Of a stretch of 64,000 nucleotides of DNA, positions 6,571 through 62,321 are shown piece after piece. Both the position numbers and the translations under genes were made by a program. The notes beneath the pieces were generated by a model. That model saw only the letters and a list, made by a program, of their open reading frames with translations. It was not told the origin of the DNA and made no database searches. Positions within the stretch are counted from its first letter, which is position 1, and each line of letters opens with the position of its first letter. The DNA comes from Botryllus schlosseri. Its lineage: Eukaryota. Where the stretch lies: assembly GCA_051294905.1 (NCBI GenBank), contig CM119383.1, forward strand, positions 20,832,001-20,896,000. The letters run 5' to 3'.

Positions 6571-6721
6571 CTCAAGAATGAGCTGACGTGTTCGATATTT
6601 CGTTTTGTCACACCTTAACTTTCATTTTGTTGTTCGTTTGTGATGCCTTCGTAAATTTCTTTCGTTTGTTGTTACAGATCATAAATTGTACAACTAGGTA
6701 TCACTCTAGGTGACATACGAT

Positions 6722-33380: not shown

Positions 33381-33778
33381 TCGTATTGTTGCAAATGTGG
33401 ACTCACTTTCGACCCGTAAATTTCCCTACCTTCCATACGCATGTCGTGTGTTACGTTTAGTAATTCTGTTAGGTTTATTACTGAAATGCTTCGTTGAACG
33501 CCTGTTTCTTTTTCGTTGTAGTAGTCGATTTAAAAAGCTTTTGCTTTATAACGTATTTTGTCTTTATGTAAATATTGCCTCGTATTGTTGCAAATGTGGA
33601 CTCACTTTCGACCCGTAAATTTCCCTACCTTCCATACGCATGTCGTGTGTTACGTTTAGTAATTCTGTTAGGTTTATTACTGAAATGCTTCGTTGAACGC
33701 CTGTTTCTTTTTCGTTGTAGTAGTCGATTTAAAAAGCTTTTGCTTTATAACGTATTTTGTCTTTATGTAAATATTGCT
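33381..33778. repeat. Apparently perfect 199-bp tandem duplication between C2 and RepHel
   Basis: tcgtattgttgcaaatgtggactcac starts at both 33381 and 33580. Confidence 0.9.
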
Positions 33779-33891
33779 TCGATTCGTTCTGTTCTTTTTC
33801 CAGTTGCTAGTTACAGTTACCTAATGTTACAAGTCATGTGATCTACTTGAAGGTTCATACCGAACACCACATCATATAGAGACATATCATA

Positions 33892-36800
33892 ATGTCTGGC
33901 AACACAATTATAATCGATTCGGAGGTGAGTTTCCATTTCTTTACTGTTTCTTTTGACAATGCAATGTTTGTGTCGTACAGGCCTCGTCTAGGCGTGATGC
34001 AGAAGTGGCCCGTTCCGCCGAGAGGATGGAGCGGTCTCGTATCTTAGCTCGTGCTTATTTCGGAGGCACGTTGCTACCGGAAGCCGATCAATCGTCTCCT
34101 GCAATGACATCTGCCGATAAAATACGTCGTTGGATCATCAGACATAGTTGGAAGGAGTGCGACGTGTGCGGTTCCGTTCTCCCTTGCATCATGACACCCG
34201 GAATCATGACTGACTGGACGCGTGCCGCCAGCACCGAGATGTCCTTGTCGTCGTTCTGGCTATCGTATCCCCAGGTTATCGGATTGGCCAGACGTTTTAC
34301 GTGGTCTAACGCGTTCCGATCACGATGTTTTGGCATTATATCGTCTGTCTGTTTTACGGTTCCTCGCCTCGTCAACAACACGGATATCGAGAGAAGAACG
34401 GTCCTGTGAGAGCTTGTCTCGTTTCCGAATCTGTACAAGACAGGTTGGAGGCAATCGACGATCCTGTCATACGAGATCGCGTGGACGCGGCATATCGCTA
34501 CCTCTTGCAATGCCCAGACAGCGCCTATGGGTTAATGGATTCTCATCATCGCGACGGAATTCTGCCGTCGCGTCTCTCGGTTGGAAGGCTATGTCGGGTA
34601 ACGCAATCATAGAGTCGTCAGAACAGGCTGATAATAGATGTCAGACATACTCTTTTCAGTTTCATTATGTGGAGACCGGTCTGTGGCCGCTCCTCTATCC
34701 TTTCAAGTGGCAATGCGAGTCTGTTGTCGAAGACGAAGGAGCTCGAAAGAGCGCCAAGCGAATGTACTGCCTCAAACTTACGTGTTCCGTTTTCGATTAC
34801 TGCGGGATGTTTTCCTTGCTGAGGTATCAATACGACAGGTGCGTAGGGACTTTTTTCCTCGTATTACACATCGATATGTTTCTATATGTTGCCAGATGGA
34901 TCTACAAGACGGTGACGGGCGCGTTAAACGATGCCGGTAGCTTTCATTGCTCGCCTGCACGCGCGCTAGACAGTAAGACGTTCAGTGCCACGTACTGGAA
35001 ATGGCAACTAAGTTATGTTTTGGACGCTGTCAAACAATATGGAATGCCGGATATCTTTATCACCATTTCGCCGTACGAATGGCAATTTCCGGACAACGAA
35101 ATACTTCTCGATCGTTTTGTGACTCTTGGACGTGGCCCGACTGGTCTCGCAGCTATCGAATCTATGCATCAAGCACATGTTCTCGAAGAAATCCTTCGCA
35201 AGTATGTTTCTGGAAAACAAAAGCACCGTTGGACCAGACACTTACTGCGCAACACCCGGACCGGTGCTAACAACGTTCACACCTACTTTTATAGGCAAGT
35301 ATCGTTTTTCCTAAAACTTGACGGCGTCATGTATATTCTTTTGCTTTTTTACGACAGATTCGAGTTTCAAAAGCGTGGAACACTGCACGCGCATTATATT
35401 GCCTGGTTGGAGGACGTTTCTTCTCTAAATATATCGGATCTATCTGCGGATCTGCCGCAAGAAGACAACGATTTTGCGGAGTTGGTATACACTGTGCAAA
35501 AGAGCAATAAACGAGTTGCTGGCATTGAAGTTCACGACGGCCCCTCGCAAGTAGAAACCGTTTCTGACGTTCCTACCCTTGTGTTGCACAGATCTCAGGC
35601 CGCGCACCGATTGAACTTACGTGTGTACTCTGAAACTCTGCTACGTACATTGCGGTGTGCCATGGACGTCCAGCTCAGCGACGGCAATAACATGCTAATG
35701 AAGTACGTCGCTGGCTATGTTTCGAAATTTCGAGAAACATCGGTTCCGCGAGACGTTCTCTTCAGCGATTTGGAGCCTAACACTATCGCCTATCGATATC
35801 TCAATCAATTATGTCCTGACGAGCCCGAAATGATACTGACTCTGGCCGACTTCAAAATGGCCTATACCTGTTCGGATACTAAAAGGTATCTGGTACCGAC
35901 GTTGGAACGTGCCCGTGAGGATAAGGTAGTTAAGGCATATATGTCTCGTCCGTTATTCGAAGAAAACATGACGATGTATGAATACCTACACCGGTACACG
36001 GTTACTGATGACCGTGGTCATCGACGCAGGTCGCAGAAAGATCTTCTGGTTGGATTCAAATTCCTCGATATGTTCACCGATGGCTATTTCTTTCAAGATG
36101 CAATCTTAAACACTCCCTTCAGGAACTTGGACCACTTGGAATTGAATGACTTTCAACGTTTGCCTCAAGACATTCGTCTGTTCTCGTTCGCTGTTCACAA
36201 CAGAGCATCGTTCTGGCAAGACAAAGACGCAGTCATACGACTTTGTAATGAACGTGGAAGCAAGAGATATTACACTGTTACATTTTGCGCTTATCTGGAC
36301 AGTCTCTTTGCCGTTTGGCGGCGTTATTTCCATATGGAAATTCCTCATTCTGCTCTCGACATTCAGGAATACAGCGACCAACCGAGTACGTGCTTGTCAC
36401 CACATCAGGCCGCGTTCGTCAACACGGTAGTGGAAAGATTGAGATGCTTCTCCGAGAGGGATGCCGAAGCCGTTGAAAATCAAGACGAAGAAGACGAATT
36501 CGATCGACCCTATTTTCTACTCTGCGGTGAGCACGGAACAGGTAAATCGTACTGTTTGTCGGAGATCATAAAAAAGGCCGTCCGATTGGCTTCCAAGATC
36601 CTTGTGGTTACGCCTACCGGTTTGTTAGCTACAACGTACAAAGCCTTGTTCGGAGACGACATAACGGCAGACACCGTGCACGCAGCGTTTCGGTTGGCTT
36701 CAGGCGTGGAAGGTCATCGAGCAAACGTTAACTGGAATATACGTCTCTTCGATCTTATTCTGATGGACGAGATCTCGATGGTTTCAGTAGTCCATGGAGA

Positions 36801-37627
36801 TCACATCTCATCGACACTTGCCTCTTTTGAGTCAACATTGCGTCGTCGTACTTTGTGGCGATCAACACCAACTTCAGCCGGTACCTGTCGATGGTTATAC
36901 CGGCAGCCTTTTCGATCACCGACAATTAATGGGACGTTGCAATGATACTCGTTTGCGCAGTCAATTTCGTACGAGAGATAACGAACTGTCGGACTTTCTG
37001 CGAATTTGTCGCTTAAGAACGCCGTCTGCGGCGGAAATACGTCAATTCGCATCCGGGATCGTTCTTTTAGACGACGATTCTCCATCTGACGAAGACTTGA
37101 TTCATGTGCATGATGAATACCCGGAACATGTTGTTCTTACATTTACCCGTCATTCGGCCAGGCGGTTCAATGAAGTCGTTCGCAATCACGTTTACAAGGG
37201 TGTTTTTCCTGTCAAAATGTGTCGTTATCCAACTGCTGATAGTCAGCTACGACCAGTTTATGAAGGCATGCCGATCATGTTGACGGAGAATCGAAACAAG
37301 AAGCGGTCATTCGTCAACGGTCAAATTGGTCGGATACACAGTGTCATCGCTAATACGATATTGGTAGAACTGCCCGATGATAGACTGATACGAGTGTATC
37401 CAATAACAAAGCCCGAAGGTGTTTATTTTCCTTTCATGTTGCGGCACGCCGGTACCATTCACAAGGCACAAGGTCAGACGTTGTCGTCCGCGATCCTCTG
37501 GTTTGATTCTAGCAACGTGAGCCCCGGTTGCGCGTATGTAGCCATGTCTCGTGTCAGATGCAAGGACGATCTTCGTTTCTTGACTACGCCGACGATACGT
37601 CACTTCAAACCTGCCGTGTCAAACTGA
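33892..37627 (+). pseudogene. Helitron-type Rep (HUH, Y2) / PIF1-family SF1 helicase; introns 33925-33980, 34839-34895, 35295-35357; about 4 frameshifts
   Basis: Rep motif 1 PDIFITISPYEW; motif 2 YFYR|FEFQKRGTLHAH after splicing; motif 3 KYVAGYVSK. Helicase: Walker A GEHGTGKS, Walker B LMDEISMV, CGDQHQLQPV, TIHKAQGQTL, AYVAMSRVR. N-terminal CxxC...CxC. Shifts near 34215, 34350, 34590, 36823. Confidence 0.92.
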
Positions 37628-38004: not shown

Positions 38005-38883
38005 ATGGCTAGCTTTGTGACTAAAATTGACGACGGTAAAGTTGCTGAAAATGAGGAACGTGGAGGCGTTGTTGAATGGTGTCAGCAATTTCCAAAAGAC
38101 TTCCTTCGGATGTATGGTCGATCGGTGCAACGGGAAGACATCACTGATGACAAGTTCGATGCAAAGCTTCATCACTTTAACTGTGAATGGCTGTCAAGGC
38201 CATCTGAAGCCATGTCTCAATTTATCCAAACTTTAGCCAGCAATCATGACTTCGGAAAACCGCTAAAGGAATTGCTCAACAATGCTTCATATAATACCTA
38301 CCAGGTACATCTTGGACACATACTAAGTCAGGTTCAGCCGCTGTGGGTTAGTCCGGCTAATCCCGAAAACGAAGTTACTCTAAGCCTTGCTGATGTTCAC
38401 GAACGGATGAACAACCTGGATCAAGTACTTGATTACGAGAATTCACCGTTTTTTTAACGGTACATCGAAGTTATGATCGAAGCCGGGAACGCATTATATC
38501 TGAACGGCATTCACCTTTTGGCACTGAGTTTCCTACTGCGAAACAAAAACAAGTGGGCAGGTAAGCTTAGGGCCCATATCGACAACGAAGAGTTTAAAGC
38601 AAATGCAACCACTGAAAACCTCGCAAGCAACCTGTATCGTGGATATGTCATTCGTAAAGGCATGAATGACACAACGCATGTGTCTCCTGAACACTCCGCA
38701 CCGGCTACGGCTGAAACCTTTCCGGTTCCGATACTGGTGCGTTCTGATACAGAGCCGATCGAAGATGCTATTCAAACTGCTTCATGCGACCAAGCCAATG
38801 CGCAGCATGATCCGGCTCTTCAAAATGCCGTCCAGACACCGAGCCAGTTGCTGGACCTTCTGTTAAAAAGACAAGAAAAATAG
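38005..38883 (+). pseudogene. Family C paralog C3 (divergent, shorter), single in-frame TAA at 38455-38457
   Basis: WCQQFPKDFLRMYG...FNCEWLSRPSEAMSQF. Track ORFs 37528-38457 and 38473-38883 share one frame. Confidence 0.85.
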
Positions 38884-39680: not shown

Positions 39681-40527
39681 TTTATTGCATATTTTCATCC
39701 TTTCCAATAACTTATCCGTTTCTAATACATTGTTTTCATGGTGGCCTTGTCACTTGTGATTCTTTGTGATGATGCGTCGAGTGTAGTGTTGATAAGGTAA
39801 CAACGGTATGTTAAACTTTACCGGCAGGATAGCGTCTTATTATAGCTAACGTGCCCGAAAGTTTTGCGTATCGTCTCACATATTTATCATTTACACGGTT
39901 AGTAACGTGATTTCAATACGAACAACTTGCAGGTCATATAGCTTCGTGCAAAAGCGATACGGTCTACGAAGTCATACTCATTGATTCACTTGTGCGTTGA
40001 CAGAAGGCTAAATACTTCGACGGAGGAGCGGATAACGTGTGAAGTGTACAAATCAGGTGTGACGTGCTGACGTAGATAGTATCGACAATAGGGCAAAATT
40101 CAGCGCAGCATAGTTCAAAGTACACCCATACGACGCCGAATTTTTCCATTTTGAATCACGTATTTGTCATTGTATGATCGTCGACTTCAGCGCGATGAAT
40201 AGCGATAGACCAGGACTCTAGGAGAAGCGTATCGTGTCTTATGCGTATACTGAACGATGCGATCGACCTGAAAGTCTGCCATGGGATGTAGTTCGACGAT
40301 TGGGTGCCACAAACAGTCATCCCATGCACCTCGGGCGGGCTGGGAGCGGCTGTGACGTCATAATCGAGTAAAATCCGTTATCCCTGTGGTAACTTTTCTT
40401 ACCTACCCTCAGAACACTTGAATGTGACCTGGAGGATCGGCAAACTGATAGTCTGCCTGGAGGATATTTTACATTGAAACGGTATGAAGACATGAACAAA
40501 GAAGAAAATCCAATGGACTGCCTGGAG

Positions 40528-41782
40528 CAGGGGTTCTCAACTTTCCTTGCGTAGCGGGCCGCATTTTAACAGCAAAACGCGCGGCGGGCCGCAGAACATT
40601 ATTACCGTATATTTGTGGACTATACTATTACATTTAGGCTAATATAGCCTAGCATTCAGTTTGTATGCATTCTACAGCAGAATGGACAGCGTTCGTAAGC
40701 TTTCAGTTGCTTTTTCTGTGATATTGTGTCATCTTCCGACGGAATAAGTAAATCCCTTCATGAAGCGAGCATTGCATTTGTTCTCAAGTCGGTATGTGCA
40801 CCTTCAAACCCTTGCACCAGAGAACTGAACTCTCTGTTTCAATGCGTGAGCGAGCAAGTATAAAACTACGGTAACTTTTTCGTTACAGACGCCATTGTCA
40901 CTTTGGGCTCTCAGTGATATGAGAAGTCTCATGTCCGGGGTAATTTCTGAGCAAACCAATCAACCATTCTCCTTTCCTTCCATGGCTGGTGCCCTGCACC
41001 AATAGTTACAGAAGTCAGCTTTGTTAGGTTGATGTTGTTTGCTAGTCCCCTCTCCCCACGTTTGCCCAGCCAGCATTAAGTCTACAAATATATCCACTCT
41101 GATAGAATATCCCAATACAATTAGCGTTGCAATGTCCGTAGATTTTGTCCAATGCTCGGTTAAAGTAGTCTACGGGGCAACGTGTTTCAAAACATGCCAC
41201 GAAAGATTTTAACTGACATTGCTGTTACTCTTCTTGTCACGATTGAATCAGACAACTGCAGCTTCGAAATTTGTTAGGTGGAGTTGTCCTTGCTGCTAAA
41301 TTCCGGAAACAGCGGAGATTCGCACAGTATAGTAACGTTTTGTTGAAGAAACGCCTTTTCTAACAGATTTCATGGGTTTAGCTATATACCAAGCAATTTT
41401 GAACCATGCGTGTTTAACGTCTTCGGCAACCTCAACAATGCCTCAAAATATGGATTGCTTAGCCTGAGACCTAGCTAGCAACGCTTTTTTCTAAGATCAG
41501 GTGATATGTGTAACTTTTGGGATGGAGCTGTCCGAAGACCTATTCAGAACAATAAGAATCTAAACTCGACCATACATCAAGAAACCAGAAAACATTGAAG
41601 AATGAGAATAAATCAAACGAAACAGAGACGGAGCGATAAGAGAGCTTTTGTAGCTAAATTGATACCGTATGAAACAATACTGTACCGGTAATAATTGCAA
41701 TCATATTGAAAGATCTCGCGGGCCACAGAAAAAGCGTCTGCGGGCCGCATGCGGCCCGCGGGCCGCGGGTTGAGAACCCCTG
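40528..41782 (-). mobile_element. Internally deleted hAT (Buster/Charlie-like) element, 1255 bp
   Basis: TIR caggggttctcaac; TSD gcctggag (40520-40527, 41783-41790); decayed transposase-like sequence on the minus strand. Confidence 0.8.
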
Positions 41783-43200
41783 GCCTGGAGGATATTTTAC
41801 ATCAAAACGGTATAAGTACATTATGACATGGACAACGAAGGAAATCCAGATATACAATGGAAACTAGTTCAAATAAAAAAAAAAGTACCTATCATCACTA
41901 ACTAATAACAATTAAAGAACGAGTTACCTCCCATCGTACGTAGGCCGAGATGGGTATTGCATGGAACAGGAGACAAAGGAGAATTTTGGAACTTCGAACA
42001 GAAAGGCCTGCAATTACATCCCGCAGACAACGTAATGTGGACAAAAGATAATTCAGACCAGGGATCACCAACACGCGAGGTCATGTTCTGCGGCCCGCGG
42101 ACTGAATTGAAATTGCGGAAGAACGCTTAGTAATGCATTTGGAAATGCTGAAATTGATCTCAGTTTGAACATGTTGTTTTTTCAACATATTGTCGTTGTT
42201 GTTTCAAAGTAAGCTATTCCCCCGTGTCCAATACCAGTATTCCTCACTAGCTGATACGGCTTTCGCAATGGTAACAACATTCCATAGAGGAAGAATCTGC
42301 TGATATGAATGGGCATATATTGCCTTCCGTGGAATGGCTCATCACTGCCATTACCGATTCTTAGAAAACGACTTCGGGCTCCCCAGAAGACCAATCTTTA
42401 CGGGCTCCCCAGAAGACCAATCTTTACAAATAAGTAATTTAAATCCGTGAATTTTTCAGCAAAATCGGTGTTTAGCTAACCTCGTTATCGATGATGTAGT
42501 TCAGGGGTGGCCGATCTGCGGCACTAAATTCGATTGAGATGTTTTGGCGGCAGTCAATGTGCAAACTGAATTTACGAATTCACTCCCTAATCAATGAGAG
42601 GTCTGAAGTATTCTTGATATTTTCTTTGCGCTGCGCGCGGTTCAACCCCGAGTGGAACTTCGATTTTAATACAGTGTCGTGTCTGAGCCCCACAGTTTAT
42701 ATGCGAACATCAGAGGAAATGATGCGCCCCATAGAGAAATAACAATTTGCAATGGTTTTCTCCTCATCACGAAGGAGACTAGTTTCTGGAAGGTATGCGT
42801 TTTGGTTAACCAGTCATGCGTTTGGGTGAATATAACATTTCCATTATAGCGGCAACCCTGATGGGAGGTCAATAAATAAACAGTTGGTCCACGTTAAGAT
42901 GCAGCACAGAACTATGAAATTCTTCAAATTATCGAAGACACCCCCAGCATAAACTCTACCGGTTGATCTGATCACACGGGCTGAGAAAGGATAAATATTC
43001 GATAGTAACATGTAAAACTTTACTGTTAAATGAGAAACTACATTGATACTTATGACGAAATTCACTCATGAGGATGAAAAAATTCTCGCGCTTGGCGCGA
43101 CTAGAAAACGAACCCCCATGGCTATTCATAGCATGACAATGCACGATTTGCGTGCTCATAGTAAATTTTATACTCAATCCGGAGTTTACTGATGATGGAC

Positions 43201-44115: not shown

Positions 44116-44700
44116 ATGAGTAGTCCAAGAAAAGCCCCTTCGGAAAAGGAATCGAAGAAACTGCGGTAGATTAGTGCTAAAAATGTCTCTCAACACCACA
44201 TATACGTCCGACCAATTAGGCCGTAAGAGATTTCGTGACGACGTGATCACAGGAAGACTGCAGAATTTCAGCAGTACATGGCTGACCACTGACCAGGCCC
44301 AGCCCGGCAGTTTCCTAGTTTGCGGAAACTCTACTCCGTAATTTCGATGTATCAGCAGGTATGGCCAACCCAATGGATCCACGCGGGCAGGCTTGACAGG
44401 ACCATCTGGGATGCATGAACGAGGTGGCGCCGATATCGGTTAACCTAGTTAACCAATCGGACGAGGTATCCCTAGCGAACGAACGCCGGGGTAGTCAGCA
44501 GAATGGAACGTCTCGTCTCGAACAGAGGTAAAATGTCGATCGTTATCTATTCTTGTAATCTTACGAGAAAAGTATGGAGGTTGCAACGTTTCTTGTACAA
44601 AAACAAGTATATTTAGTCACTACGAATGCGCACAGATCCGGAACACGCTGACTTCAAGAGAATGGTGGAACGGGTACCGACTACGGTAACATGATTTGCA
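44116..44700 (+). pseudogene. Heavily decayed family C copy
   Basis: aaaagccccttcggaaaaggaa matches the C start. Recognisable remnants FAETLLRN, MDPR and LRMRTDPEHADFKR (compare FRSHPDHEDFKK). Acceptor ttctacag at 44084. Confidence 0.7.
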
Positions 44701-45586
44701 ACAAGGCTACCTGGCGAAGAAAGGTTATAATGTTAGCCCTCGCGTAGCACTCATCAGGCGATTCACTGGATAATTTTGGGCCATCGAGGCCGTCATGGTG
44801 GCACGAACATGGCTCAGCGGCTTTTGTCTGGGGTTCGAAGGTAGTTTGAATTGGGTGGAAATGCATCCCGTGAAAATGCATCCCGACTATCGATACCTGC
44901 ATAGGCAGCCGACCCGCGGCCGTTGCTTCCCCACAATGTCCCTTTGTCTATCTCCTCTTGCACACGGACCATCGTTTCAGAGACGACCCCTCCTTTCTTT
45001 CGTTGTTATTTAATCCATTCTTCCAACCCATTCTTCCATCCTAAAAGCCAGCCTAGACAGATGAGATTGTGTGCTTGAACAAGATCCCAAGGTAACCAGC
45101 AGGGTTCATTAGACCTTTCGAGTGCGGAGGATGGATCCAAGCGTGCACACCACAGTGCGATCCAGGTCAGCCTCAAAACCAGGCTACGCAAAACAATGAC
45201 TTGCGATCGCCTCTCGCAGTCGCAACAATACTAGGTCGATCTTGGTTGTGACGAACATGGCTGGCGCGAGGCGGCGAATGGAGATGCAATCGTGATGTTG
45301 TCAATTTCCAATCAATCATTCATCATGTTTTTGTTAAAATTTCTTTTGTAATCTAAAAGGATGATATTCTATATCTTAAAGAGGGCTACCATTTTTTTTA
45401 AAACTCGGCATCCAAACCAAACTTGGAAACGTCTGGAGCTGACTATTTGTCCACAGACTTACAAGTAGAACGGACGCTCCCCTCAGGATTTTTTTATGCG
45501 GCGTCTACCCTTGTGTAATCGTGTTCTCATGTTACGGAAATCGTATGTTTCGTGAGGCTACGAGAGCTCACTCCAACAAATGCTCC

Positions 45587-46760
45587 CAGTAGTTGCAGTT
45601 AAATGTAACGGCATTGCCCCAATGTTTAATGTACTACGAGAGCTGATACACGCCCGCAGTAGTTGCAGTTGAATGTAACGGCATTGCCCGTTATTCTAAC
45701 GTACTACGAGAGCTGACACACGCCCCTACTAGTGCCAGTTGAATGTAACGGCATTGCCCGTATGTTCAATGTACTACGAGAGCTGACACGAGCCTCCAGT
45801 AGTTGCAGTTGAATGTAACGGCGTCGCCCGCATGTTCAATGTACTACGAGGGCTGAAACGAGTCTCCAGTAGTTGCAGTTGCATGTAACGGCATCGCCCG
45901 TATGTTCAATGTACTACGAGGGCTGAAACGAGCCTCCAGAAGTTGCAGTTGAATGTAACGGCATCGCCCGTATGTTCAATGTACGAGGGCTGAAACGAGC
46001 CCTCAGTAGTTTCAGTTGAATGTAACGGCATCGCCCGTATGTTCAATGTACTACGAGGGCTGACACGAGCCGCCAGTAGTTGCAGTTGAATGTAACGGCG
46101 TCGCCCGCATGTTCAATGTACTACGAGGGCTGAAACGAGTCTCCAGTAGTTGCAGTTGCATGTAACGGCATCGCCCGTATGTTCAATGTACTACGAGGGC
46201 TGAAACGAGCCTCCAGAAGTTGCAGTTGAATGTAACGGCATCGCCCGTATGTTCAATGTACGAGGGCTGAAACGAGCCCTCAGTAGTTTCAGTTGAATGT
46301 AACGGCATCGCCCGTATGTTTAATGTACTACGAGGGCTGAAACGAGCCTCCAGTAGTTACAGTTGAATGTCACGGCATCGCCCGTATGTTAAATGTACTA
46401 CGAGGGCTGAAACGAGCCTCCAGTAATTGCAGTTGAATGTAACGGCATCGCCCGTATGTTCAATGTACTACGAGAGCTGACACGAGCCTCCAGTAGTTGC
46501 ATTTGAATGTGACGGCATTGCCCGTATGTTTATTGTACTACGAGAGCTGACACGATCCTCCAGTAGTTGCAGTTGGATGTAACGGCATTGCCCGTACTAC
46601 GAGAGGTGACACGAGCCTCAAGTAGTTGTGTTTTAGTGGGTCAGTGATGTATCTATCATGCTATGAGAGCTGGCACAAAGCCTCAAATAGTTTCAGTTGA
46701 ATGGTTACTGAACAATGTACTACGAGAGCTGGTATGAGCTTCAGGCAGTTGTAGTTGAAC
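45587..46760. repeat. 70-bp minisatellite, 15 good units plus degenerate tail, containing a duplicated 277-bp four-unit block
   Basis: Unit cagtagttgcagttgaatgtaacggcatcgcccgtatgttcaatgtactacgagggctgaaacgagcctc, starts spaced 70 or 67 bp. Confidence 0.95.
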
Positions 46761-47609
46761 CTTTCGATAGTCCCGATTGAGTTTTAGTTGAGTATTGACG
46801 CTGATAATAAAAGAATTTCAACTTATCTAGGCACGTCGGCATATCGATACAACAAGCTATGATCTAGGCGCGTCAGGTAAACCAGTAGGCTGACTGACTG
46901 CACAGCGCAGATGTAGCTTAGTTCAACAGTAATGTAAACGTCAATGTATCTCAGTGATACCAAGCCTTTGTCTTTCAAATCTGCAAATAGCCGTTGATAC
47001 CTTTTCTACAATTATACTGAACGAGCTTCATCCAATACCTTTCCTACACTTATATTGAACGAGCTTCATGAGCTCAGACGCAATACTACCGTCTCATACC
47101 ACGTTCTCGGATGAATGACAAATTTGAGATGGCTTACTCGCGTGACACGGCGTCATGGAGAGAAATGCTCTTGCCAGAAAAAATATGATCGCAGAATTTC
47201 TAAAATGAACATTTGAGCAACTAATGGATATATTGCGTCAAGTTAGGGATCGATTCAAGCCGAAAAATTAGTGTTGTATTTTTTAACGGGAATTCTAAAA
47301 GCGGAAGCAAAAATGAACAAACGGCAAGCCTAATCGTAGATATGAAATGAAATTAACAAAGATCCGGTCCGGTCCCTGAAATAGACACTTTAGGTCCTCG
47401 CCAAATACCGGTACACGTAGTTAGAATATTGCGATTATTTTCCGCAATATTTTCTCGATTGGAACTATCTTCATTGATATAACTCACCTGTAAAACCACG
47501 TCACATTCCTTAGAACTAATTTCAGCAAGATTTGAATGAGATACAGCGCAGAGAAAACCAGAATTCGTAACAGCGCAGAGAAAACCAGAATTCGTAACTT
47601 ATCAAAATT

Positions 47610-48055
47610 ACTGAGGCAAAAATTTACTACATGACTCTGACTCGCCTCGTTGCAACGTCAAGACGTACTTTTACCGGTACGAATTTCAATAACGAAGCAC
47701 TTTGCATGAGCATTACCTAACGTGGCTGAACGGCAGAAGTCGACGTAGCCAAATTCAGTGCGGATTTACCAGATTGCGACGCGGCGATTTGGGACGTTGT
47801 CTATAATACTCAAAGAAGTAGGCAGCCTGTCAAGGGTTTGGAAGTTAGAGACAGACCTAGTGTTTTCGAATCCATTGCAGATAGACCGGTCATGCATCTG
47901 ACCCCTTCGCAACGCGCCCATTCTGTAAATTTAACGCACCCACCAACGCACGTCCCTTACTAGAGGAGTTGTGTTGTTCTATAGATACACAATTGACTGA
48001 CGGCAAGGGCATGCGTCGCGTCGTACGTGTCTAAATTTCGCGAGTCTCTATTCCA
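47610..48055 (+). pseudogene. Second, divergent Helitron Rep remnant (motifs 2-3), helicase deleted
   Basis: NVKTYFYRYEFQ*RSTLHEHYLTWL...FSADLPDCD...VYNTQRS...LEVRDRPS...PLLEELCCSIDTQLTDGKGM...ASYVSKFRES aligns with the Rep at 35270-35750. Confidence 0.82.
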
Positions 48056-48356
48056 CGTTAGCTGCTGTTTTCCGACTTGGCGCAAAGCATTGCGTATACT
48101 TGCGCAATTTGTGTCCGGCAGAACCAGATATGAGTTCACTATGTATTAGGTGATGTCACGATGGCTTATATTTGGACGCGGGCGCTACAAAAAGAAAACC
48201 GGCGATGGCGTGAACTTTCAATGCCAATTTCCCAAAGATTTTGTGAGACCTTACGGTGCTGCAACTCACGTAGACGCGACCGACAACGATGCATGCATTG
48301 CTGATATCAGGCAAGTGAGCTGCGAGTGGGCCGTGAGACCAGACTACGCTCTAAGC

Positions 48357-50335
48357 CAGAGGTCTCAAACTCAAATGTACTCGCGGGCCAATTTCCTAGT
48401 TTTTGATGACGCCGCGAGCCGCAGCATAAATAGTAGGGATATTCAATGTATAATTTCCAAGTAGGCCTTATTTGACGGGAGCTTGACAGACAGGCATTCC
48501 ACAAACATCGTGAAAATGTAATACTATTGTACTATGCATGCTTGACACGGAACAAATCACATTTTCAAATACTTGAATAAAATTGGTTTTGTGTTAAAAT
48601 AATGAGTTATAGACATCATGCAAGAGGGTGGATCATGATTTGTGACATCGTATAACTGTCGGGTACTCGGGTTATAATATTGCTGCTAGGGGACCTTTGA
48701 CGTGCCACAATTTTATGTAGAATACTTTAAAAGCTACTGAAGATTAATCTGATATCAGAGCATTTGAGCGGTGTATCCTAATCCGGGATTTGATATAGTC
48801 GTGATAAGTAGGCTGTTGTTACTGTCATTGCCAAAGTCAAATTAAATCAGCGTTGGATTTTGCTTTCGATTATTATTGGAACATATCAATAACAACTTAA
48901 ATATAATTTTTGAGTAATAGCATTGTTTCTTAACCTTTCTAGCGATCGTACCCCTTGTGCTCCCAATAAGAATTCTCGTAGCTCCTGTCCATTTTCTACA
49001 CAATGTCTGATGGTAGGCTACCTATATTAAAATATGGTAGGCTACCTATATTAAAATCAAAAAGCCCATTCACATAGAATCGCGCGTAGGATGAAGAATA
49101 TCCCATTTGCATAAATTAGCGAATAAAATATTCCCACAGCATACCGGCCTAATTCCACAATGCATCTCGTACCACATGATGTGGTGCTTCGAGCCCCGAA
49201 GGGGTGTACTGACACTAGACCGAAGGGGTCTACTGGAATAGAAATGTCCAATCGCCGAAGAATTCATTGGTGTTACAGCTGTGGAGCGTACTGCTACTTT
49301 ACTCGCCACCGATAATAACATGTATAAAGAGAGCAAACAACACCTAGCATGTGACCAAATATATACGTCACGGGGGTCACAGAATGCCAATGGTTGCCAT
49401 ACTGACCTGATTAGAGAGCTATTTACTAGTGCGGAGCATGGACCGAAGCCGGATTGGATATCCAGCCAAATATTTTCAGTTTTGGCCGGACCGGATCGGA
49501 GCCGGATCAGTACTTTTCTGATACGGCCGGAGTACTATTTTAATAAGGCCAGAATCTCTATGGATAGGCATGACGTTTGTAACTAAATAACTACCAACCA
49601 ACAACAAACAAGTAACCGCCAAGCCAGTGCGAAAAGAAACGAGCCAGAACGAGAATTTTTAAATTCACTGAAACACGGTACCGTGTTGGGCCGGATTTCC
49701 GACAGGACTTTTTCATTTTGGGGCGGAGCCGGATCACTACTTTTTCCAGATACGGCCGGAGCCGGACAAGAGAATTGGCAAACCGGATCGGAGCCGGACC
49801 AGAGAATTTGTCGATCCGTTCCGCACTACTATATACTCTGAATGACGCAAGCTACGACCTTTTGATATATTACTATTCACCATGACAGTTTCATAGATTG
49901 TTGCGTCCATAGGATTACCAAGTCACCTTTGCGAGTCGCAAGTCCTTCTCTGATTTACCGTTTCACCCAACTCAACTGGAGTTATTTTTATTTAATCACC
50001 AAGTCAATCCGAAATCGAGTAATTGTACGAAAGGTCGAACCAAACCAAGTCATAATTTTTAGTCGCGAATCATCAACGGATCATGTTTTATCACCATGAA
50101 CTAGAAATGTTAAGTACTAGCAGTTCTTCTACCGCATGGTAGTTTTTAAAAGTGATGTGATAGTGAAGTTTGTTGATATTTCAGTGATTTTTATGGTAGT
50201 TTTAGGGTGAATTTTAAGTTCTTATTTCTAAAAAAGAAACATGGCACTTGAATATATTGTCGGATACTTGAAATTCTAAAATGCCGTCGCAGGTCGCACA
50301 AAATGTTCTTGCGGGCCGCGTGTTTGAGACCTCTG
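48357..50335. mobile_element. Non-autonomous hAT element, 1979 bp
   Basis: TIR cagaggtctcaaac; exact TSD ctctaagc (48349-48356, 50336-50343). Confidence 0.9.
49427..49828. mobile_element. hAT-type MITE nested in the previous element
   Basis: TIR tagtgcgga; TSD ctatttac/ctatatac (7 of 8); internal gccggatcggagccgga repeats. Confidence 0.75.
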
Positions 50336-51578
50336 CTCTAAGCGAGCTGGCAGAAACGTTATTCATGACCGTGCAGCCTTCGTCAGATTTGGCCATTCTC
50401 TCCAACCGCGGCTGAAGGCGAGGTTCGATCGAATCATGGACGCGCTGTCTGTGGCGACAAGATCGTTCTGGCACCGCAAGGATAATCCACAGTTCAAAGA
50501 AAAATGACCAGAGCTGAGGTGATCGCAGCGATGGAGATGGTGAGGTCCTACGTCGTTAAAGACGAAGAGGACGACCAAGATACCGACGCGGCTTTTCTGG
50601 AAGAATATACGCGAACCATGCTGGTTGTCACTGCGGGGTTAACGCAGCTGGGAGCGCAGATTCGCGTCATGAGCGTTTGCGTGTCGGATCTGGAGGGCCT
50701 GGCACACAAGTCTGTGTGTGCTCAACGAGCAGACAAAGGCGTTCAAGTCGAAGCCTACGTTTGCGATACGATCTATATCGATACAAAGACGCGTGGGAAA
50801 CCTGCTAATGAGAACGTCGAAGAAGGGGTCAGCGGAGGCCTCATGCGATTTGCTGAAGATGGGGATCCGACGGTTCTCCGCGACAGCCGTCACGCCGTTC
50901 CTCTTCGTCTCGCCGTTGTGCTCCCGAACCCGACGTCGATTCCTCTGACGATTCTGACGATGACTCTTCTGGACCTGATACCCGCATACCGTCGGGCAAC
51001 CGCGTGAGGGAATCGCACGTAGTGACTGTGCGTCGTGATCGCCGCCGTTCTCCTGCTCAGTCTTCCGCCGATTCGTGCGAACTGGGACCTTCGACTTCTT
51101 CCAAAAAAGGAAACGTAATTCGGACGTTGTCGCTAGGTCAATCAGGTCGAGGCCCACCTTCCTCTGCCGAATCTGATGACGCGACTTCGGGATCTGAACC
51201 TGGTCCACCCATGACCGTTAAGAAGCGTTCCAGGTAACGTTCTTCCACTGGGGCTGCGCCTTCGACCAGTCGTCAAAACGCGCATCAGGACGATGATGCG
51301 GTCGAAGACGATGTTGAAATCGACGTCCCGCCGCGAACAGGGTCTGGCAAAAAGGCGAAGCGTGCGAGGATGTGGCGCAAAACAGGGCTAGTTTCTGGCA
51401 AGATACAAAGGCGATTAGCGACCTGTGCAAACAGAAAGCTTGTCGCAGCAACTACACTTCGTCTCTGTGGGCTTATCTCGTTAGCCTGCTTCACGTTTGG
51501 AATGGTTCGCCGGGACTTCGAATTGGAACACCTCAACGACTTAAAACTGGTACGGATTCGGGGAGTCCGACTGTTTAA

Positions 51579-53141
51579 AGGGGCACTGCGCTCTAAATAT
51601 GATGTGGTCTCAAATTGAAGGGCAAAACGAAAAAAAAAATTTGGCCGCAGCCGTTTTCTTCAGAACGCCACCGTAATGGAGCTGCAATTTATTGAAATTT
51701 CCAGAAACGCACCCGGCTGCGGCTGTTGCGGCTCCGGGTAATTTCTTAACCCGTTACATGGCACGATGACTTCATCGTCGCACTTGCTGGACGCGATTAC
51801 GCAGGCACGCAGTGGACGAACTGTAGATAGTTGTCAGCCGATGTTATGAAGCAAATATGTCTTACACGCCAAGGTGGTGTAGATACGGCGTTCCGCGGAC
51901 GATATTCAGTCAGCAGATTTTTCTCTTAATTGGGCCTAGTGCAGTGGTTCCCAACCTTTTTCGACCGATCGCCCCCTTTTCAAGGTCAACACCGATCATC
52001 GCCCCCCAAATTTTGTGCACCGATAATTGGGCATGCAGACTGTAATCACCGGCGGGTTGACTAAAAAAAAAAAAAAAAAAGGTCATCTTTCTCCGCTCAG
52101 AGCTGAAAATAACGTTTTTTCTCTCCAAATTGCTAGGTGGATGACTAAAAAAAAATAAAAAAAAAAAGGTCAGCCGTTTTGACGCGTCAACGCCCCCTAT
52201 CGCCCCCTTCGCTATTTTCGCCCCCCATCGCCCCCTTTGTCCATTTTCGCCCCCCTATCGCCCCCTTCGTCATTTTCGCCTCCCTAGATCGCCAAATCGC
52301 CCACGTTGGGAACCACTGGCCTAGTGTATTCTATTTCTTGAGGGCAGGAATAGATCATGTCCTATTCTTATGTTATGTATAAAACATTACCATCACCAAT
52401 CAGTGTGCCCTCTGAACATTTCAAAATTCAGAGCTGTTCAGGTTGGAGAATCATAAGATGATGGCTTGGGGATTAGTAAGATTATAATATAATGAATAAT
52501 ATGTTTTAGGGTCAGCTGCGGAGTTGTGGGTTCAGGTTAGGTTTGCGTACCGTTGGATTTTGGTTAGGGATGATGAATTTTCCTACAGTAGCCTACCCGA
52601 ACCACCAATTTTGAATGTCATGAATTTTGTCATGTTCATGGTGAACCCTGACTGGTGGTATTCGTGTTGTGGATAAGAAATTACTGTTACCCTGAAAAAC
52701 GGCTACAGCATAAAGTGCTTCTCAACCTGTGTGACGGTTCGTACTTGTGCGAATGAAAAGAATTTCAACCAAATAGTCAACCAATGTTGAGTGAAAGAAA
52801 AACTATATTTCCGGAGTTGAGCTGGAAAGTTACCCCTTTTTTAGTCAACCGACCACGGAGTCTGAAAAATTTACTATTTTTTCAGGATTATATACTTGAT
52901 CCACTATTCTATTTCTGAAAATTTTGAATGAATGTCCTCCTTTCTCGAAGTCATCGTGCCATGTAACGGATTAAGAAATTACCCGGAGCCGCGGCAGCTG
53001 CAGCCGGATGCGTTTGTGGAAATTTCAATAAATTGCAGCTCCATTACGGTGGCGTCCTGAAGAAAACGGCTGCGGCCAGAATTTTTTTTTCGTTTTGCCC
53101 TTCAATTTGAGACCACATCATATTTAGAGCGCAGTGTCCCT
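51579..53141. mobile_element. Kolobok-like non-autonomous DNA element with about 200-bp TIRs
   Basis: ttaa|aggg...ccct|ttaa ends; 51579-51776 is the inverted copy of 52948-53141. Confidence 0.75.
51942..52318. mobile_element. hAT-type MITE, 377 bp, nested in the Kolobok-like element
   Basis: TIR cagtggttcccaac; TSD gcctagtg (51934-51941, 52319-52326). Confidence 0.92.
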
Positions 53142-53187
53142 TTAACTAAAACAAAGCATTGCAATTGTCGCAACCCTGTGTTGACGC

Positions 53188-53246
53188 CAAAGTGAAGAAA
53201 TTCGCCCAAGTGCGGGTAACCGACGGGAGTAACTATGACTCTCTTA
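53188..53246 (+). pseudogene. Short eukaryotic 28S rDNA fragment ending at the R2/I-PpoI target region
   Basis: caaagtgaagaaattc...aagtgcgggtaaccgacgggagtaactatgactctctta versus the conserved 28S ...gcgggtaaacggcgggagtaactatgactctcttaaggtagcc; homology stops at ctctctta. Confidence 0.8.
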
Positions 53247-54235
53247 CTTGGAGACCTGCGTAAGTCGGATCCTAGGGTCGGCAGCACCCTCCTGGTATCG
53301 TAGATATCAGGCAGTCCACATGCGGATGAGAACCCTACCATGGCGGCATAAGAACGGGAAATGCGGACAAGCCGGGAGCCGAGAGAGTTCCCAACTAGGG
53401 GCGGTATAAGAACGGGCAATGCGGACAACGGACGAGCTGGAAGCCGCGAGAGGTCCCAACTAAAGGGTCAGAAAAACCCTCCCGGTATCATGAGGTACTT
53501 GAGTAGTCCATGAGCGACATAAGAACGGACAAGGTGCAAGCTGGGATCCGGAGTGTTCCTTACCTTGGCGGTCCAAGAATGGGCAACTGACAAGTCCCCG
53601 GGATAATCCGAGAACCGTCTGCAAGACAGCGTAAGTAATACATTCATTACACGGTGGCAAGGTGAGCATATGTATATTTATCTATGTTCAATGCTAATCG
53701 GGAAAATTGGCGGCAACCATGTGTAACATTACCGAGCACCGCGGATTGTGTGGCGTCTTGGATTCTGTTGGGGCCTACGGGACGAATGGGGAGCAAATGA
53801 ACTGACAAGCAATGGGGAGAGAACCCCCAAAGGGGATACTAAAGAGGCAATCAGATGAAAGAACGGACAACGAACTTCAATTCGGAATTTCATTTCGCAG
53901 ATCCTATTAGATATATCAGTTATTCCTATATAATATCAGTTATTCCTACATAATATATCTAACATTTATCTGAACGATAAGAAGATAAGAAGTTCAGGAC
54001 AGTGGTCCGATCATCTGCTGACATTTCTGTCGGCATGAAACCACACTGCTTTTTACCGCATGACCAGGCTGAATTTTTTTACGAGGGCATCATCAATTTC
54101 TTAGTTGAACAGTTGGTTTGTGGTACAGAACTTGAAGATAGCTTTCAATACAACATCCATTGTAGTAAAATATTTATTCAACTCGAAGACTTTTCGGGTG
54201 CCTCTTTTCAAGAGTTAACGGCACACTGAAGAACG

Positions 54236-54347
54236 CACGAATTAGAACGCACTAATGGGAAATTTGTAAGTTATACAGAAACAAGTTATACAAAAAAAGA
54301 TTTTCTGTATAACTTACAAATTTCCCATTAGTGCGTTCTAATTCGTG
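54236..54347. repeat. Palindrome with 46-bp arms and 20-nt spacer (mini fold-back element)
   Basis: cacgaattagaacgcactaatgggaaatttgtaagttatacagaaa and its reverse complement at 54302-54347. Confidence 0.88.
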
Positions 54348-54389
54348 TTTGTTATTGTTTGGTTTCAAAATGCTTTGTTACTTGTATCG

Positions 54390-55297
54390 GGTTGCCAGTA
54401 AATTCGGCCCTCGGTAAATTCGGCCAGTGAATTCGGCCCTCGGTCACTTCGGCCATCGGTAAATTCGGCCCTCAGTAAATTCGGCCCCCGGTAAATTCGG
54501 CCAGGGCCAGGGTAACAATAACAGTTACAATAACATTACCTAACCTTAACCCTAACCTAACCCTAACCTAATCCTAACCTAACCCTGATCCTAACCTAAC
54601 CCTAATCATAACCCTAACCTAATCCTAACCTAACCCTAATCCTAACCTAACCCTAATCCTAACCTAACCCTAATCATAACCCTAACCTAATCCTAACCCT
54701 AACCTAACCCTAATCCTAACCCTAATCAGGATTAGGATTAGGGTTAGGTTAGGGTTAGGATTAGGTTAGGGTTATGATTAGGGTTAGGGTTAGGGTTAGG
54801 TTAGGATTAGGGTATATTATGTAATATTATTCACATTAATAGTTGGTATACTACAACTTTACACAAAATTCTCCGAGGGCCGAATTTACCGGTTGAATTC
54901 CGTCCTCAGTAAATTCGGCCCCGTAAATATCCGCGTTATCTCCCGTGACTGTGTGATATACGCATACCCTGACCTCCAAATCTCTCGAAAATAATAGAAT
55001 TATGTAATTCATTCACATTAATAGTTGGTAATACAAAATTCTCCGAGGGGCGAATTTACAGAGTAAATTCGGCCACCGGTAAATTCGGCCCCGTTAATAT
55101 CCGCGCTATCTCCCACGATTACGCGATCTACGCATACCCTGACATCCAAATCACTTAATAATAGTATAATTATGTAATTAATTCATGTTAACGGTTGGTA
55201 ATACATTTTAATACAATATTCTCGGAGGGCCGAATTCATCGAGGTCATGGCCGAATTCACTGGCCGAATTTACCGAGGGCCGAATTTACTGGCAACC
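54390..55297. mobile_element. Non-autonomous TIR element, 908 bp, GG termini and 8-bp TSD (superfamily uncertain; Merlin- or MULE-like)
   Basis: TIR ggttgccagtaaattcggccctcggtaaattcggccagtgaattcggcc; TSD ttgtatcg (54382-54389, 55298-55305); many aattcggcc subrepeats. Confidence 0.85.
54539..54812. repeat. Inverted telomere-like array: (CCCTAA/CCTAA)n then (TTAGGG/TTAGG)n
   Basis: Strand switch at cctaatc-ag-gattagg (about 54728). Confidence 0.92.
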
Positions 55298-56559
55298 TTG
55301 TATCGTACTCTTCAAGTTTGTTATTGTTGCCATCGTTACATTGCGGACTTCGTGGTATGTAATTTCTGATTGTTGCGTCATACTTCGCCTTTCTGGTTTT
55401 GCTTTTCATTCTGTTTAAATCCCTTCAGTGTGCCGTTAACTCTTGAAAAGAGGCACCCGAAAAGTCTTCGAGTTGAATAAATATTTTACTACAATGGATG
55501 TTGTATTGAAAGCTAATTTCTTAGTTGCCAATGTTCGGCTCTCTTGAGATAATCCATCATATCAATAATTCGTATACATGTGGTAAAGCCATGTCTTGAA
55601 ACTCAAGATATTTGCAATGTGCCAAACACTGAAGTAGGCTAATCCAATCCAGGCAATCGATCAAGTAATCCAGACAGTTTGTTGCATCATCAGTTGGAGC
55701 TGATGATCATTTTTCTTCGGGTAGTGGCACTTGGTAGCATGGCAGAATGATCAATAACTTGTAATATAGGTATAGAGGTCTAAATATTTTGAATTGTTTA
55801 CTGAGAAGCCATACAATAGCATAGGATGTTTAATATATATATTGTATGTAGCATGTTGCATGAATTCCTAACACATCAACGTACTGGCAGTCATTATCTC
55901 TTCAGGCTTAAAAATAGCGGTATCCTATATATATTGCAAACGATATCAATCATCAAAATACTGCAATGATTACCAACTACCACTATACAATAGAACTACA
56001 GCAGGCCATGCAGTGCTGCATTAAATATCACGTAGTCAATCAAGTAGTGCTAATAAAATCAGCATTATATAAGGCAACAATGAAGTGCACTGCTTTGTTT
56101 AGTCTTGATGTCAGGTTTTCCCAAAAGATACTTCCGATGTGTTCAGCGACATTGTTTTATGTCAGCACGACAGCAGAGCCCACAGTATATTCTGATCCTT
56201 GCGGGTCTCAGCTGCTTCAGTCATATCTTCCATCCAAAATCATGCTCCACAACAGACATATAGTACTACTTGAATTAACAAATACTCTTACCAGAATATA
56301 AACCAATCGCTCTACTTCAAATGCCAGAATTTAAGTACATACGATCAGAGTTGAGTACCGTAATACGACTACGTTACCGAGGGATTTCTGCGTAATTCTG
56401 ACGATGCCATTCGAAATGCTTTGTACAAGACTGACGTCTAGCATAGGTGAATCTCTGATGACTTCCACAACAAATTTCTGAAACGTTTACAACCAGAAAT
56501 CAACAGTACAGTATGCGATATTTAGCACTGAAGCAGGTGCGCGAGAAAGTAATTTGCTA

Positions 56560-59923: not shown

Positions 59924-62321
59924 ATGAGTCTGTGGCTGTGTCCTACCGAATGCTGCGATGGGGTGGAGTCGTTTCCCAATAGAATATCCTTATTATCTCA
60001 CATGAGGCGGTTCCACCGAAACGAAAGTAACTTCTTGTGCAAAATTGACTGCTGCAACCGAGAGCTTGGTACGTACTAGCTAGAGTTACGAGGTACATGT
60101 TTATCAAATGCACAAAGAAGTACTAGAGAAGTCAAGAAAAACGACAGACAGCAATAGTCAACTTGAAGTGCCTGCTGCTGAGAATGCAGGAAATGATGAT
60201 GGACAATTGATGAATGAACGTCAGAGCGAGAGCGGTACTGATACGTCTTCGAAAGAAGTAGCAAAAAGAATTAAAAGTTTTGAAGACAGTTTCTTTTTAT
60301 TTACGTTGCGATGCCGGGAAGAATTCACTTTACCAAAGTCAACATTTCGGGATATAATGCTGAACGTTGTGGATGTACTAGATAAATATAAAATTGAGAT
60401 ATTTTCGCAAATTTCTGCAACTAGTACGAACCCCATTCCGCATGGCGCCATTAATAGCTCTCATTTGCTTTTGCCGGACGTAGTCGATATGATGAATGTT
60501 ACCCAGAGTGACTAGCGCTATTCCAAAATGTTAGATCGATACGGCTTGATCAGACCCATTACGCACCATTTTCAGGATGAATGTCAATGTCAGTATATCC
60601 CAATACTACAAACCTTGCAAGCATACATTTCTCACAGAGATGTCATACAAAGCATAGAAAAGAAAATGCTGATGCGTAAGGGTCCTGATGAATTCCTGTA
60701 TGATTATACTGATGGAAATATTTTTCTTAATGCATTTTTTCGTGGCCAAAGGGAATTGTTGAGGATTCATTTATATCTGGACGACCTGGAGTTGTGCAAT
60801 CCTTTGGGGTCTGCTCGTGGGAGTCATAAACTATGTGTTTTCTATTTTCAACTGGGGAATATTGAGAATAGGTTTTTGTCAAATATGCGTAGCATTCACC
60901 CTCTGGTTATAGTAAAATCTTCTGTTGTCAAAAAAATCGGTTACCATGCACTGTTGGAACCATTACTCACTGACTTAAAAACATTAGAAACTTCTGGTAT
61001 CGAAGTAACTTTATGGAATGGTTCCAAGAGACACTTTCGTGGTGGCTTGGTAACCGTAAGTGCGGACAACCTCGCAAGTCATGAGTTAGGCGGCTTTCGC
61101 CAATGCTTCAGCTCTGGTTACATATGTCGGTTTTGCACCTGTCAATATTCGGAGTTTCGTGAAATATCTAATGATCGTATGTTTAGCTTGCGAACATCAA
61201 CGAATCATAAAGCACATGTTCGAGAAGCACTGGCAACAAATGACGAAATATTTGGCGTGAAAAAAGATTGTGTTTTTGAAAGATTGCTCTCATTTGACAC
61301 TGTAAATGCGTTTCCGCCCGATGCAATGCACGACGTCTATGAGGGCGTATTAAAGGTGACATCAGACTGCATCCTCCTCAATTTGATCTACCAAATTGTG
61401 CCAAAGCAGCGCTTTGTAGAACGTGTAATGTCATTTCGATATGGAAGGCATGAGATTCGTAACAAGCCCAACTTTACTGGAAAAATGAACAGGCTGAGCG
61501 CGTCGCAAACTTGGTGCTTTTTCCGTCATCTTCCATTTTTTGTGGGTCCTGACATCCGTGAAGGGAATATGATCTGGGCCTGGTATTTGCTCCTATCAGA
61601 AATCTGTGATATTATATTTGCTGAAGTTACAAAGAGGGAAAATGCTCATGAACTGGTGTATCTTGTTACCGAATTCTTCGAGACTGTCAAAGAGACGGCA
61701 CCGAATATTTTAAAACCTAAATTCCATTTCCTTTTACACTACGGAATAATGATTTTAAGGTACGGCAATCTGAGGAATCTCTGGTGCATGAAATTTGAGA
61801 GCTACCATCAACGATTGAAGAAAATCGCTAAGGCGAATTCAAATTTTAAAAATATTTCCCTGTCAGTCGCATATAGGCTACAATATCGGAAGTGGTATGA
61901 ATTTTGTTCGTCTGATATTCTGCGTGACGATGTCCCAAGTGTTGATTCACGGTTATTGCGCTGGGATTCGATTCCAATAGAGTACAGAGAACTAATTCGA
62001 GTTCAACATGACGCAAGTGTCAACGTATTTCATGACGAGTCACACAAATATCAGGTTCAAGATATTTATGTGGTTGATAAAACTGCTGATGAACTAACAC
62101 CTTGTAGAATTGAATATATATTGTTTGTCAATGCCGAGTGCTTCTTTTGTACTAAATTGATAAAGTCTATTCAGTTTATCAAACACTTTCATAGTTACTC
62201 TGTTAAAGAAGAGGGCTTCCGTGTTTTTCGTCCTACAGACTTGATGTCTCATGAACCGCAGCAGATATATGTAATCAATGACATTAACTTGATAAGGTTA
62301 CGTCGAGGCGTATATAACTGA
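59924..62321 (+). pseudogene. EnSpm/CACTA-like transposase with N-terminal C2H2 fingers; shift at about 60080 and in-frame TAG at 60513
   Basis: LYLDDLELCNPLGS...HKL, DNLASH, CRFC, PPDAMHDVYEG, KPKFHFLLHY and WCMKFESYHQ motifs; 597-aa uninterrupted C-terminal ORF. Confidence 0.82.

Follow-up and report, generated by a model that had tools for sequence, protein, structure and literature searches.

Does a Helitron-like transposase keep company with a particular partner gene, and has it done so for long? The question is raised by a 64,000-nt stretch of Botryllus schlosseri DNA (contig CM119383.1, positions 20,832,001 to 20,896,000; in the following called the window). Here, a main Helitron-like element carries copies of an orphan gene, family C, on both sides of its transposase gene RepHel, and an older remnant at 44.1–51.5 kb contains pieces of both genes. 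An earlier note on this DNA had described the remnant as a mirror of the C2-RepHel-C3 arrangement of the main element and concluded that the linkage of Rep and C is old rather than a one-off capture. Our analysis supports the old linkage and rejects the mirror. In the best reading, what is conserved is RepHel accompanied by one or more C genes, and the sandwich is not fixed. The remnant then represents a dead, rearranged older family of the main element's lineage in which C was stably inherited, a reading to which we assign a probability of about 0.65.

The window consists of eukaryotic DNA with many transposons. The main element spans ~25.3–40.4 kb with the gene order A, B, C1, D, C2, RepHel, C3, all on the plus strand, and incomplete relatives lie at 2.5–8.2 kb and 17.8–25 kb. 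The following genes of the main element serve as references:

29675 to 30931, plus strand: C1, open reading frame (ORF) intact
32138 to 33367, plus strand: C2, ORF intact
33891 to 37627, plus strand: RepHel, an HUH Rep with a compact Pif1/RecD-like helicase, start codon presumed
38005 to 38883, plus strand: C3, with one in-frame stop at 38455-38457

The RepHel reading frame shifts several times (introns and/or frameshifts), and 377 nt separate the helicase stop from C3. In the older remnant and at its border, we delineated these pieces:

44116 to 44764, plus strand: C44, a decayed family-C gene with its ATG at 44116, spread over several frames with frameshifts and stops
45586 to 46596, no strand assigned: tandem array of a 70-bp unit in 14.5 copies (looser copies at 45495-46759), between C44 and the old Rep
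47618 to 48169, plus strand: old Rep remnant, matching residues 343-552 of the main ORF (34210) with an E-value of 1.8e-15
48171 to 48356, plus strand: 5′ part of C48, a divergent C gene joined directly to the Rep remnant (profile independent E-value, iE, 2.6e-16)
48357 to 50335, no strand assigned: hAT-type insert splitting C48, 1,979 nt, non-autonomous
50344 to 51371, plus strand: 3′ part of C48, the frameshifted remainder of the helical domain, followed by what appears from its composition to be a Ser/Arg/Asp-rich tail with a basic end
51372 to 51503, plus strand: second Rep remnant, main residues ~661-703, collinear with the first piece
51575 to 53145, no strand assigned: unrelated element with terminal inverted repeats (TIRs) of 199 nt, directly beyond the last detectable remnant piece

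The decayed C gene reported at 44116 is real. The piece at 44289-44483 matches best and shares 46% of its residues with C2 (tblastn with the window's own proteins, E 1e-8), and the DNA identity to C2 is 62.7% (415/662). In a control with 100 shuffles, tblastn scores of 57.4 and 45.1 bits for Rep and of 48.9 and 48.5 bits for C stood far above the shuffled maxima of 26.2 and 25.8 bits. The Rep remnant, placed before at 47610-48055, likewise aligns to Rep, with a true span of 47618-48169, and was also recovered by a hidden Markov model (HMM) of eight outside Reps (iE 1.1e-10). Searches with the Rep and C profiles yielded the pieces already seen by tblastn. This Rep profile contains outside sequences only, and the C profile contains 62 sequences including one from the window. 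In the old Rep, the HUH motif (motif 2) is degenerate and the tyrosine motif (motif 3) is only partial. The second Rep piece, absent from the earlier note, shares 50% amino acid and 66% DNA identity with the main Rep (E 9e-11), and it moves the end of the remnant from 51237 to about 51503.

C48 begins abruptly at ~48171, where Rep homology stops at residue 552, and lacks about its first ten codons (tblastn piece 48174-48356). The previously given start at 48150 is a Rep-derived overlap; the peptide that had been quoted for this gene was recovered across the insert, and C48 reaches 87 bits against the C profile when its breaks are bridged by X. The insert has perfect TIRs of 14 nt (48357-48370 and 50322-50335) and an 8-bp target duplication (48349-48356 and 50336-50343), the two features by which hAT elements are recognized. 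It contains no transposase gene, the longest stop-free frame having 154 amino acids, and because it is non-autonomous, its assignment to the hAT superfamily is made from the ends alone. Beyond the insert, C48 continues into the second Rep piece with no intervening stop or untranslated region and stands in place of ~110 Rep codons. Since the Rep piece at 51372-51503 lies downstream of it, C48 sits inside the Rep remnant.

The order in the old copy is thus C44, 2.85 kb, Rep(343-552), C48, Rep(661-703), which does not mirror C2-RepHel-C3. No helicase is detectable there: the Rep HMM registered none in 40.4–64 kb, apart from one minus-strand score that was weak (iE 0.57). When 40.4–56 kb was compared sensitively with 1–40.4 kb, as DNA and in six frames, there were no remnants of genes A, B or D in the old copy, and in the same comparison no termini were shared between the old copy and 1–40.4 kb. 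Phylogeny points the same way. Two C trees, one with 52 and one with 24 rows, drew on 40 among the first 60 search matches and five chosen sequences, or on a 24-row subset; 180 domains were usable. C1, C2, C3, C44 and the proteins P0001 and P0002 form one clade (support 100/99), and C48, a long branch, pairs with P0003 or with P0003/P0011. The approximately unbiased (AU) test rejected grouping C48 with C3 (p-AU 0.0073, C48 being a long branch) and C48 with C44 (p-AU 0.0073), and did not reject C44 with C1/C2 (p-AU 0.056).

In a Rep tree containing this lineage alone, with no reference sequences of Helitron-like elements (HLEs), the old Rep is the sister of the main Rep (100/98). Its amino acid identity is 43% to the main Rep, the closest sequence, and 35% to that of Ciona. 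The DNA identities to the main element are nearly the same for the old Rep (62.5%) and for C44 (62.7%). Between old and main copies, the proportion of synonymous differences is 0.74-0.82, near saturation, and that of non-synonymous differences 0.26-0.48. Nearly saturated synonymous and fewer non-synonymous differences argue that both families were functioning separately while they diverged, and that the old one died later. Tree positions and DNA identities of old Rep and C44, together with the outside locus described next, support the conclusion that the linkage of Rep and C is old and not a single capture.

To look beyond the window, contigs in GTDB were scanned by Rep alignment alone, with C not in the query. 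Twelve pattern matches yielded one confirmed locus:

L001, JAAEPJ010000273.1, 5,634 nt: C tail at 1-312, short tandem repeats, RepHel to 3941, full C at 4071-4901

The full C begins 129 nt past the helicase stop (C-profile iE 4e-53). It falls in a distant part of family C and is 24-27% identical to the window's copies, the Rep being 30% identical. L001 is filed under a bacterial metagenome-assembled genome and would represent eukaryotic carry-over, because the named relatives are animal. Its upstream C is a recent duplicate or a tandem neighbour, because both C copies share a 457-nt repeat that is 92% identical; the upstream repeat stops at a scrambled Rep damaged at its N-terminus, resembling a tandem neighbour. 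Because these two copies are so similar to each other, flanking C pairs seem to form anew in every lineage. Furthermore, the Rep P0157 and the C protein P0169 are each listed with 1,353,297 nt as their longest contig and probably lie on one contig, a weak second case of linkage. For the four Rep-C pairs, both trees show the same split, with main and old copies of the window on one side and L001 and P0157/P0169 on the other. On this thin outside sampling, an ancient link of Rep and C is probable.

The upstream C is separated from Rep by a tandem repeat in each of the three loci (33381-33781, 45586-46596 and 469-693 of L001), and the units of the main, old and L001 loci are unrelated in sequence. 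By its position, the 70-bp array would belong to the old element.

Family C is large. An unindexed search among 1.84 billion found 292 clusters (at 50% identity) with a maximum E-value of 0.001, whereas a single-sequence word search recovered one homologue among 382 candidates. One profile fits 259 of the 260 proteins retrieved in the C search, and Porites evermanni accounts for two among the 120 C matches listed. The clusters are ~25-30% alike and many have tens to 177 members, as expected of a multicopy element. The proteins consist of a ~200-amino-acid domain with a conserved N-terminal block (Y37, G38, C60, E61, W62, R65, P66, A69, S71, E72) and a variable low-complexity tail. This tail is often basic at its end, with on average 24% Lys/Arg in the last 25 residues of 153 proteins and at least 32% in 46 of them. 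Among the window copies C1a, C1c and C2, the ratio of non-synonymous to synonymous rates (dN/dS) is 0.12-0.16, and by this measure C is under purifying selection. A splice-acceptor-like sequence lies shortly 5′ of the ATG in all five C genes inspected (C1, C2, C3, C44 and L001), which suggests that C genes have a spliced leader exon.

The predicted structure of C is all-helical and confident (predicted local distance difference test, pLDDT, 85.7). Searches for relatives gave little. At the curated cut-off, Pfam has no family in 92 C proteins; the 93rd protein of this set, P0007, was rejected as a C member. PHROGs gave three scattered single-member matches among 62, PDB sequences a best E-value of 0.05, the ESM Atlas a best value of 0.86 (nothing for the L001 protein), and phage records no match. 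A fold search in PDB and BFVD returned nothing at E ≤ 0.001, with generic helical hairpins as best hits (Z 6.0), nor did any known capsid fold in the library match significantly. Such missing matches indicate neither a new nor a different fold.

The transposase has the hallmarks of rolling-circle elements. Motifs 1, 2 (two His) and 3 (two Tyr) are all present in the main Rep, in L001 and in each of eight homologues, and an SF1 Pif1-like helicase is fused C-terminally to Rep in the main element and L001 and absent from the 44–51 kb remnant. The Helitron_like_N domain scores above the curated cut-off in seven of the eight homologues, with the window's protein just under it (28.3 versus 28.9 bits). 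The closest RepHel match is a Ciona intestinalis protein (38%). Judged from these motifs, RepHel would work like that of a Helitron. A 63-nt in-frame GC-AG intron-like insert (35296-35358) lies directly 5′ of the HUH motif in the main Rep and is absent in the old Rep remnant and L001.

Its class is less clear. As in HLE1, exemplified by Helraiser (PDB 7lcc), there is a single RepHel with an HUH Rep followed by a Pif1-like helicase, Rep motifs 1 and 2 align, and the helicase matches that of Helraiser with an E-value of 3e-23. However, the Rep domain matches it only at E 0.53, which is the sole PDB match of Rep, and the helicase profile scores five compact Pif1-like/AAA entries higher (8bnv, 5fhd and others, E ~1e-31 to 1e-30), of which we take the two named to be bacterial. 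The proteins of ~1,180-1,240 amino acids are also shorter than the more than 1,500 given for Helitron RepHel in the available text of PMC6431247. For the typical HLE1 ends (5′ TC, 3′ hairpin plus CTRR, AT insertion), the window copies do not fix the element ends, and Rfam showed nothing relevant there. We take the Rep motifs FITISP and H-x-H-x-x-x-W to be of HLE2-like form. Further likeness to HLE2 (Helentron/Helitron2) lies in the N-terminal Cys-rich region, the internal tandem repeats and the deletion derivatives (as far as described in the available part of PMC4067079). In contrast to HLE2, we found no match to an AP endonuclease (Exo_endo_phos) or to DUF6570 in the eight homologues and L001, and no subTIRs were identified. 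Proteins reaching the C-terminus stop directly past the helicase. The domain DUF6570 upstream of Rep is proposed as an HLE2 marker in the available text of PMC11417382; it had no match in 12 sequences, with HMMER filters hiding weak matches, and the Cys-rich region holds its position.

Two other systems invite comparison. Plant Helitron RPA (PHRPA, Mothra family) is likewise an accessory gene stably kept by Helitrons; in the sections available of PMC4683698, it has been carried for 145-300 My, and semi-autonomous derivatives retain PHRPA and lose RepHel. Unlike PHRPA, C has no similarity to RPA, the OB-fold or a known family, and an element can contain as many as three copies of it. The Paramecium HLE clade, an example of Helitron-like elements beyond HLE1/HLE2, has internal satellites. 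Compared by description, it differs in ORFs of 9-10 kb and its location at chromosome ends, and captured genes are not reported in the part of PMC13085455 at hand. Full-text literature searches turned up no description of this lineage or of gene C; Repbase/Dfam, subscription journals and supplements lie outside their coverage and may hold the family.

Several observations weigh against an old, inherited linkage. Between C44 and the Rep remnant lie 2.85 kb without detectable homology to the main element, so that nested separate insertions are possible. L001 is the single outside locus with flanks (1/1) and was found through Rep, so it is silent on the share of C genes without Rep. The other six Rep matches with a listed contig figure pair with none among the 120 listed C matches, and no C-Rep fusion occurs among 260 C-search proteins or eight Reps, both searches being length-limited. 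The congruence of the four pairs is weak, as two come from one genome and one from the shared contig figure. Genes B and D have dN/dS values of 0.55-0.95, indicating little or no constraint, so part of the cargo is not a selected system.

These points leave room for other explanations. An unlikely one is a fixed ancestral C-RepHel-C cassette with two specialized C paralogues, whose helicase was lost from the old copy by one internal deletion. The junction of Rep residue 552 with C48 fits a single-deletion product, and C flanks RepHel on either side in the main element as well as in L001. Yet Rep residues 661-703 sit after C48, within the supposedly deleted stretch, and the downstream C genes are not mutually orthologous: the clade of C48 with C3 was rejected (C48 being a long branch), and the L001 copies are 92% identical, the upstream repeat, which ends at a damaged Rep, looking like a tandem neighbour. 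Slightly less likely still, C could be a separate mobile unit or non-autonomous passenger that inserts preferentially beside or in Helitron-like elements, so that adjacency reflects clustering. C48 does lie within a Rep gene and belongs to another lineage of C, the copies of C at 5.3 and 20.8 kb lack an adjoining Rep, and clustering is reported for distantly related Helitrons in the available part of PMC4067079. However, the same strand and a helicase-to-C spacer of 129-377 nt recur at two very distant loci, C44 and the old Rep agree in tree position and divergence, and no other transposase is attached to C within the window. The Rep-less 20.8-kb copy, moreover, is a main element with an internal deletion. 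It belongs to the derivative at 17.8–25 kb, head-to-tail ahead of the main element, whose C1/C3 hybrid (20760-21496) marks the loss of D, C2 and RepHel.

It is very improbable that C is an ordinary host gene captured repeatedly and independently by Helitrons. Gene capture as such is known and full-length capture exceptionally rare, according to the available text of PMC6431247. Against this origin stand the lack of any Pfam family in 92 C proteins, the ~25-30% likeness of clusters that are often multicopy, and the purifying selection on whole C ORFs between element copies. We consider it just as improbable that the element is an endogenous virus-like replicon with C as its coat or nucleocapsid protein. 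The two-gene layout of a Rep and a basic-tailed protein recalls Rep/capsid replicons. Their capsids, however, are of the jelly-roll type, unlike the wholly helical C model, and here Rep carries a fused SF1 Pif1-like helicase in Helitron fashion and, in the main element, contains intron-like inserts.

We therefore prefer a Helitron-like lineage with an inherited C. Its active members would have carried a compact RepHel and one or more C accessory copies on the same strand. RepHel presumably nicks and unwinds one strand, leading to rolling-circle copying, and C would be a selected, stably inherited element gene rather than a captured host fragment. Helitrons form tandem copies and clusters, and internal deletions generate non-autonomous copies (available parts of PMC11417382, PMC6431247 and PMC4067079). 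Tandem copying, together with duplication of C, may produce the recurrent C-Rep-C appearance. In the old copy, the nearly complete coding sequence of a more distant C could have been placed between residues 552 and 661 of Rep by template switching or during break repair, and the hAT-type element would have entered C48 afterwards.

For C itself, a role as non-catalytic nuclear helper, its helical domain oligomerizing and binding the intermediate or RepHel, is the leading candidate by analogy, at somewhat short of even odds within the preferred reading. RPA is thought to act likewise for plant Helitrons (available text of PMC4683698). Ranked next, and clearly more tentative, is an anti-silencing factor, suggested because C duplicates repeatedly and has fast-evolving tails. 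VANC of plant Mutator elements provides an anti-silencing precedent. C may also be an enzyme of unknown type. A bolder version, which we regard as doubtful, places these elements in a separate deep clade of marine-animal rolling-circle transposons outside HLE1/HLE2. Its compact helicase would have an obligatory new-fold partner that coats or escorts the single-stranded intermediate or counters silencing and co-evolved with RepHel across phyla.

The 44–51 kb remnant itself reflects ordinary transposon decay; its value lies in a second family showing the link. Family C is large, selected and unnamed in the literature covered, and the RepHel to which it is linked obtains low scores with the standard Helitron profiles. 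The HELIANO survey detected the known accessory genes of Helitrons (RPA, OTU, endonuclease and 17 more) through their Pfam domains, as the available text of PMC11417382 describes, and a gene without a Pfam model would thus be missed. If the linkage is broad, many "uncharacterised" animal proteins would be transposon genes, and C would mark an overlooked lineage and offer a testable two-component rolling-circle system.

The remaining genes of the main element recur within the window. Family A has copies at 2876-3500, 18414-19031 and 26541-27158 (37-45% identical) and a weak trace at 1219-1453. It has no Pfam match, its synonymous sites are saturated, and no copy was found in L001. After C, family A is thus the second orphan gene under selection in these elements. 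Genes B and D are found at the following positions:

4512-4949, 19989-20426 and 28944-29342: copies of gene B
6716-7779 and 31082-31786: copies of gene D, the one at 6.7–7.8 kb broken at ~6910-7440

Several rRNA-like stretches were also noted. Within the 5′ repeat region of the main element, 25348-25368 and 26074-26095 correspond, in reverse complement, to 21 nt of the Rfam consensus for eukaryotic large subunit (LSU) rRNA. Weaker LSU-like copies lie at 25524-25554 and 26033-26063, and the 21-nt stretch also matches 53212-53232. Near the right end, ~40375-40398 may be a second 28S-like motif, which Rfam did not confirm. A diverged 28S rRNA fragment at 53165-53264 (Rfam E 4e-4 to 5e-4, under the gathering score) breaks at about what we assume to be the R2 retrotransposon target site, and is possibly an R2-type 5′ end.

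Downstream of the remnant, nested TIR elements at 54134-55520 flank an inverted telomere-like repeat array (54539-54813). A 601-amino-acid ORF at 60516-62321, with a weak match to a Plavaka transposase (E 2e-5) and neighbouring ORFs at 60084 and 62830, belongs to a separate DNA transposon. The regions 373-891, 9348-10533, 12359-12874, 15352-16913 and 40527-41783 contain long terminal repeat (LTR)-type reverse transcriptase, a long interspersed element (LINE), a hAT-type miniature inverted-repeat element (MITE) and probable hAT transposase fragments, one of them with DUF4371.

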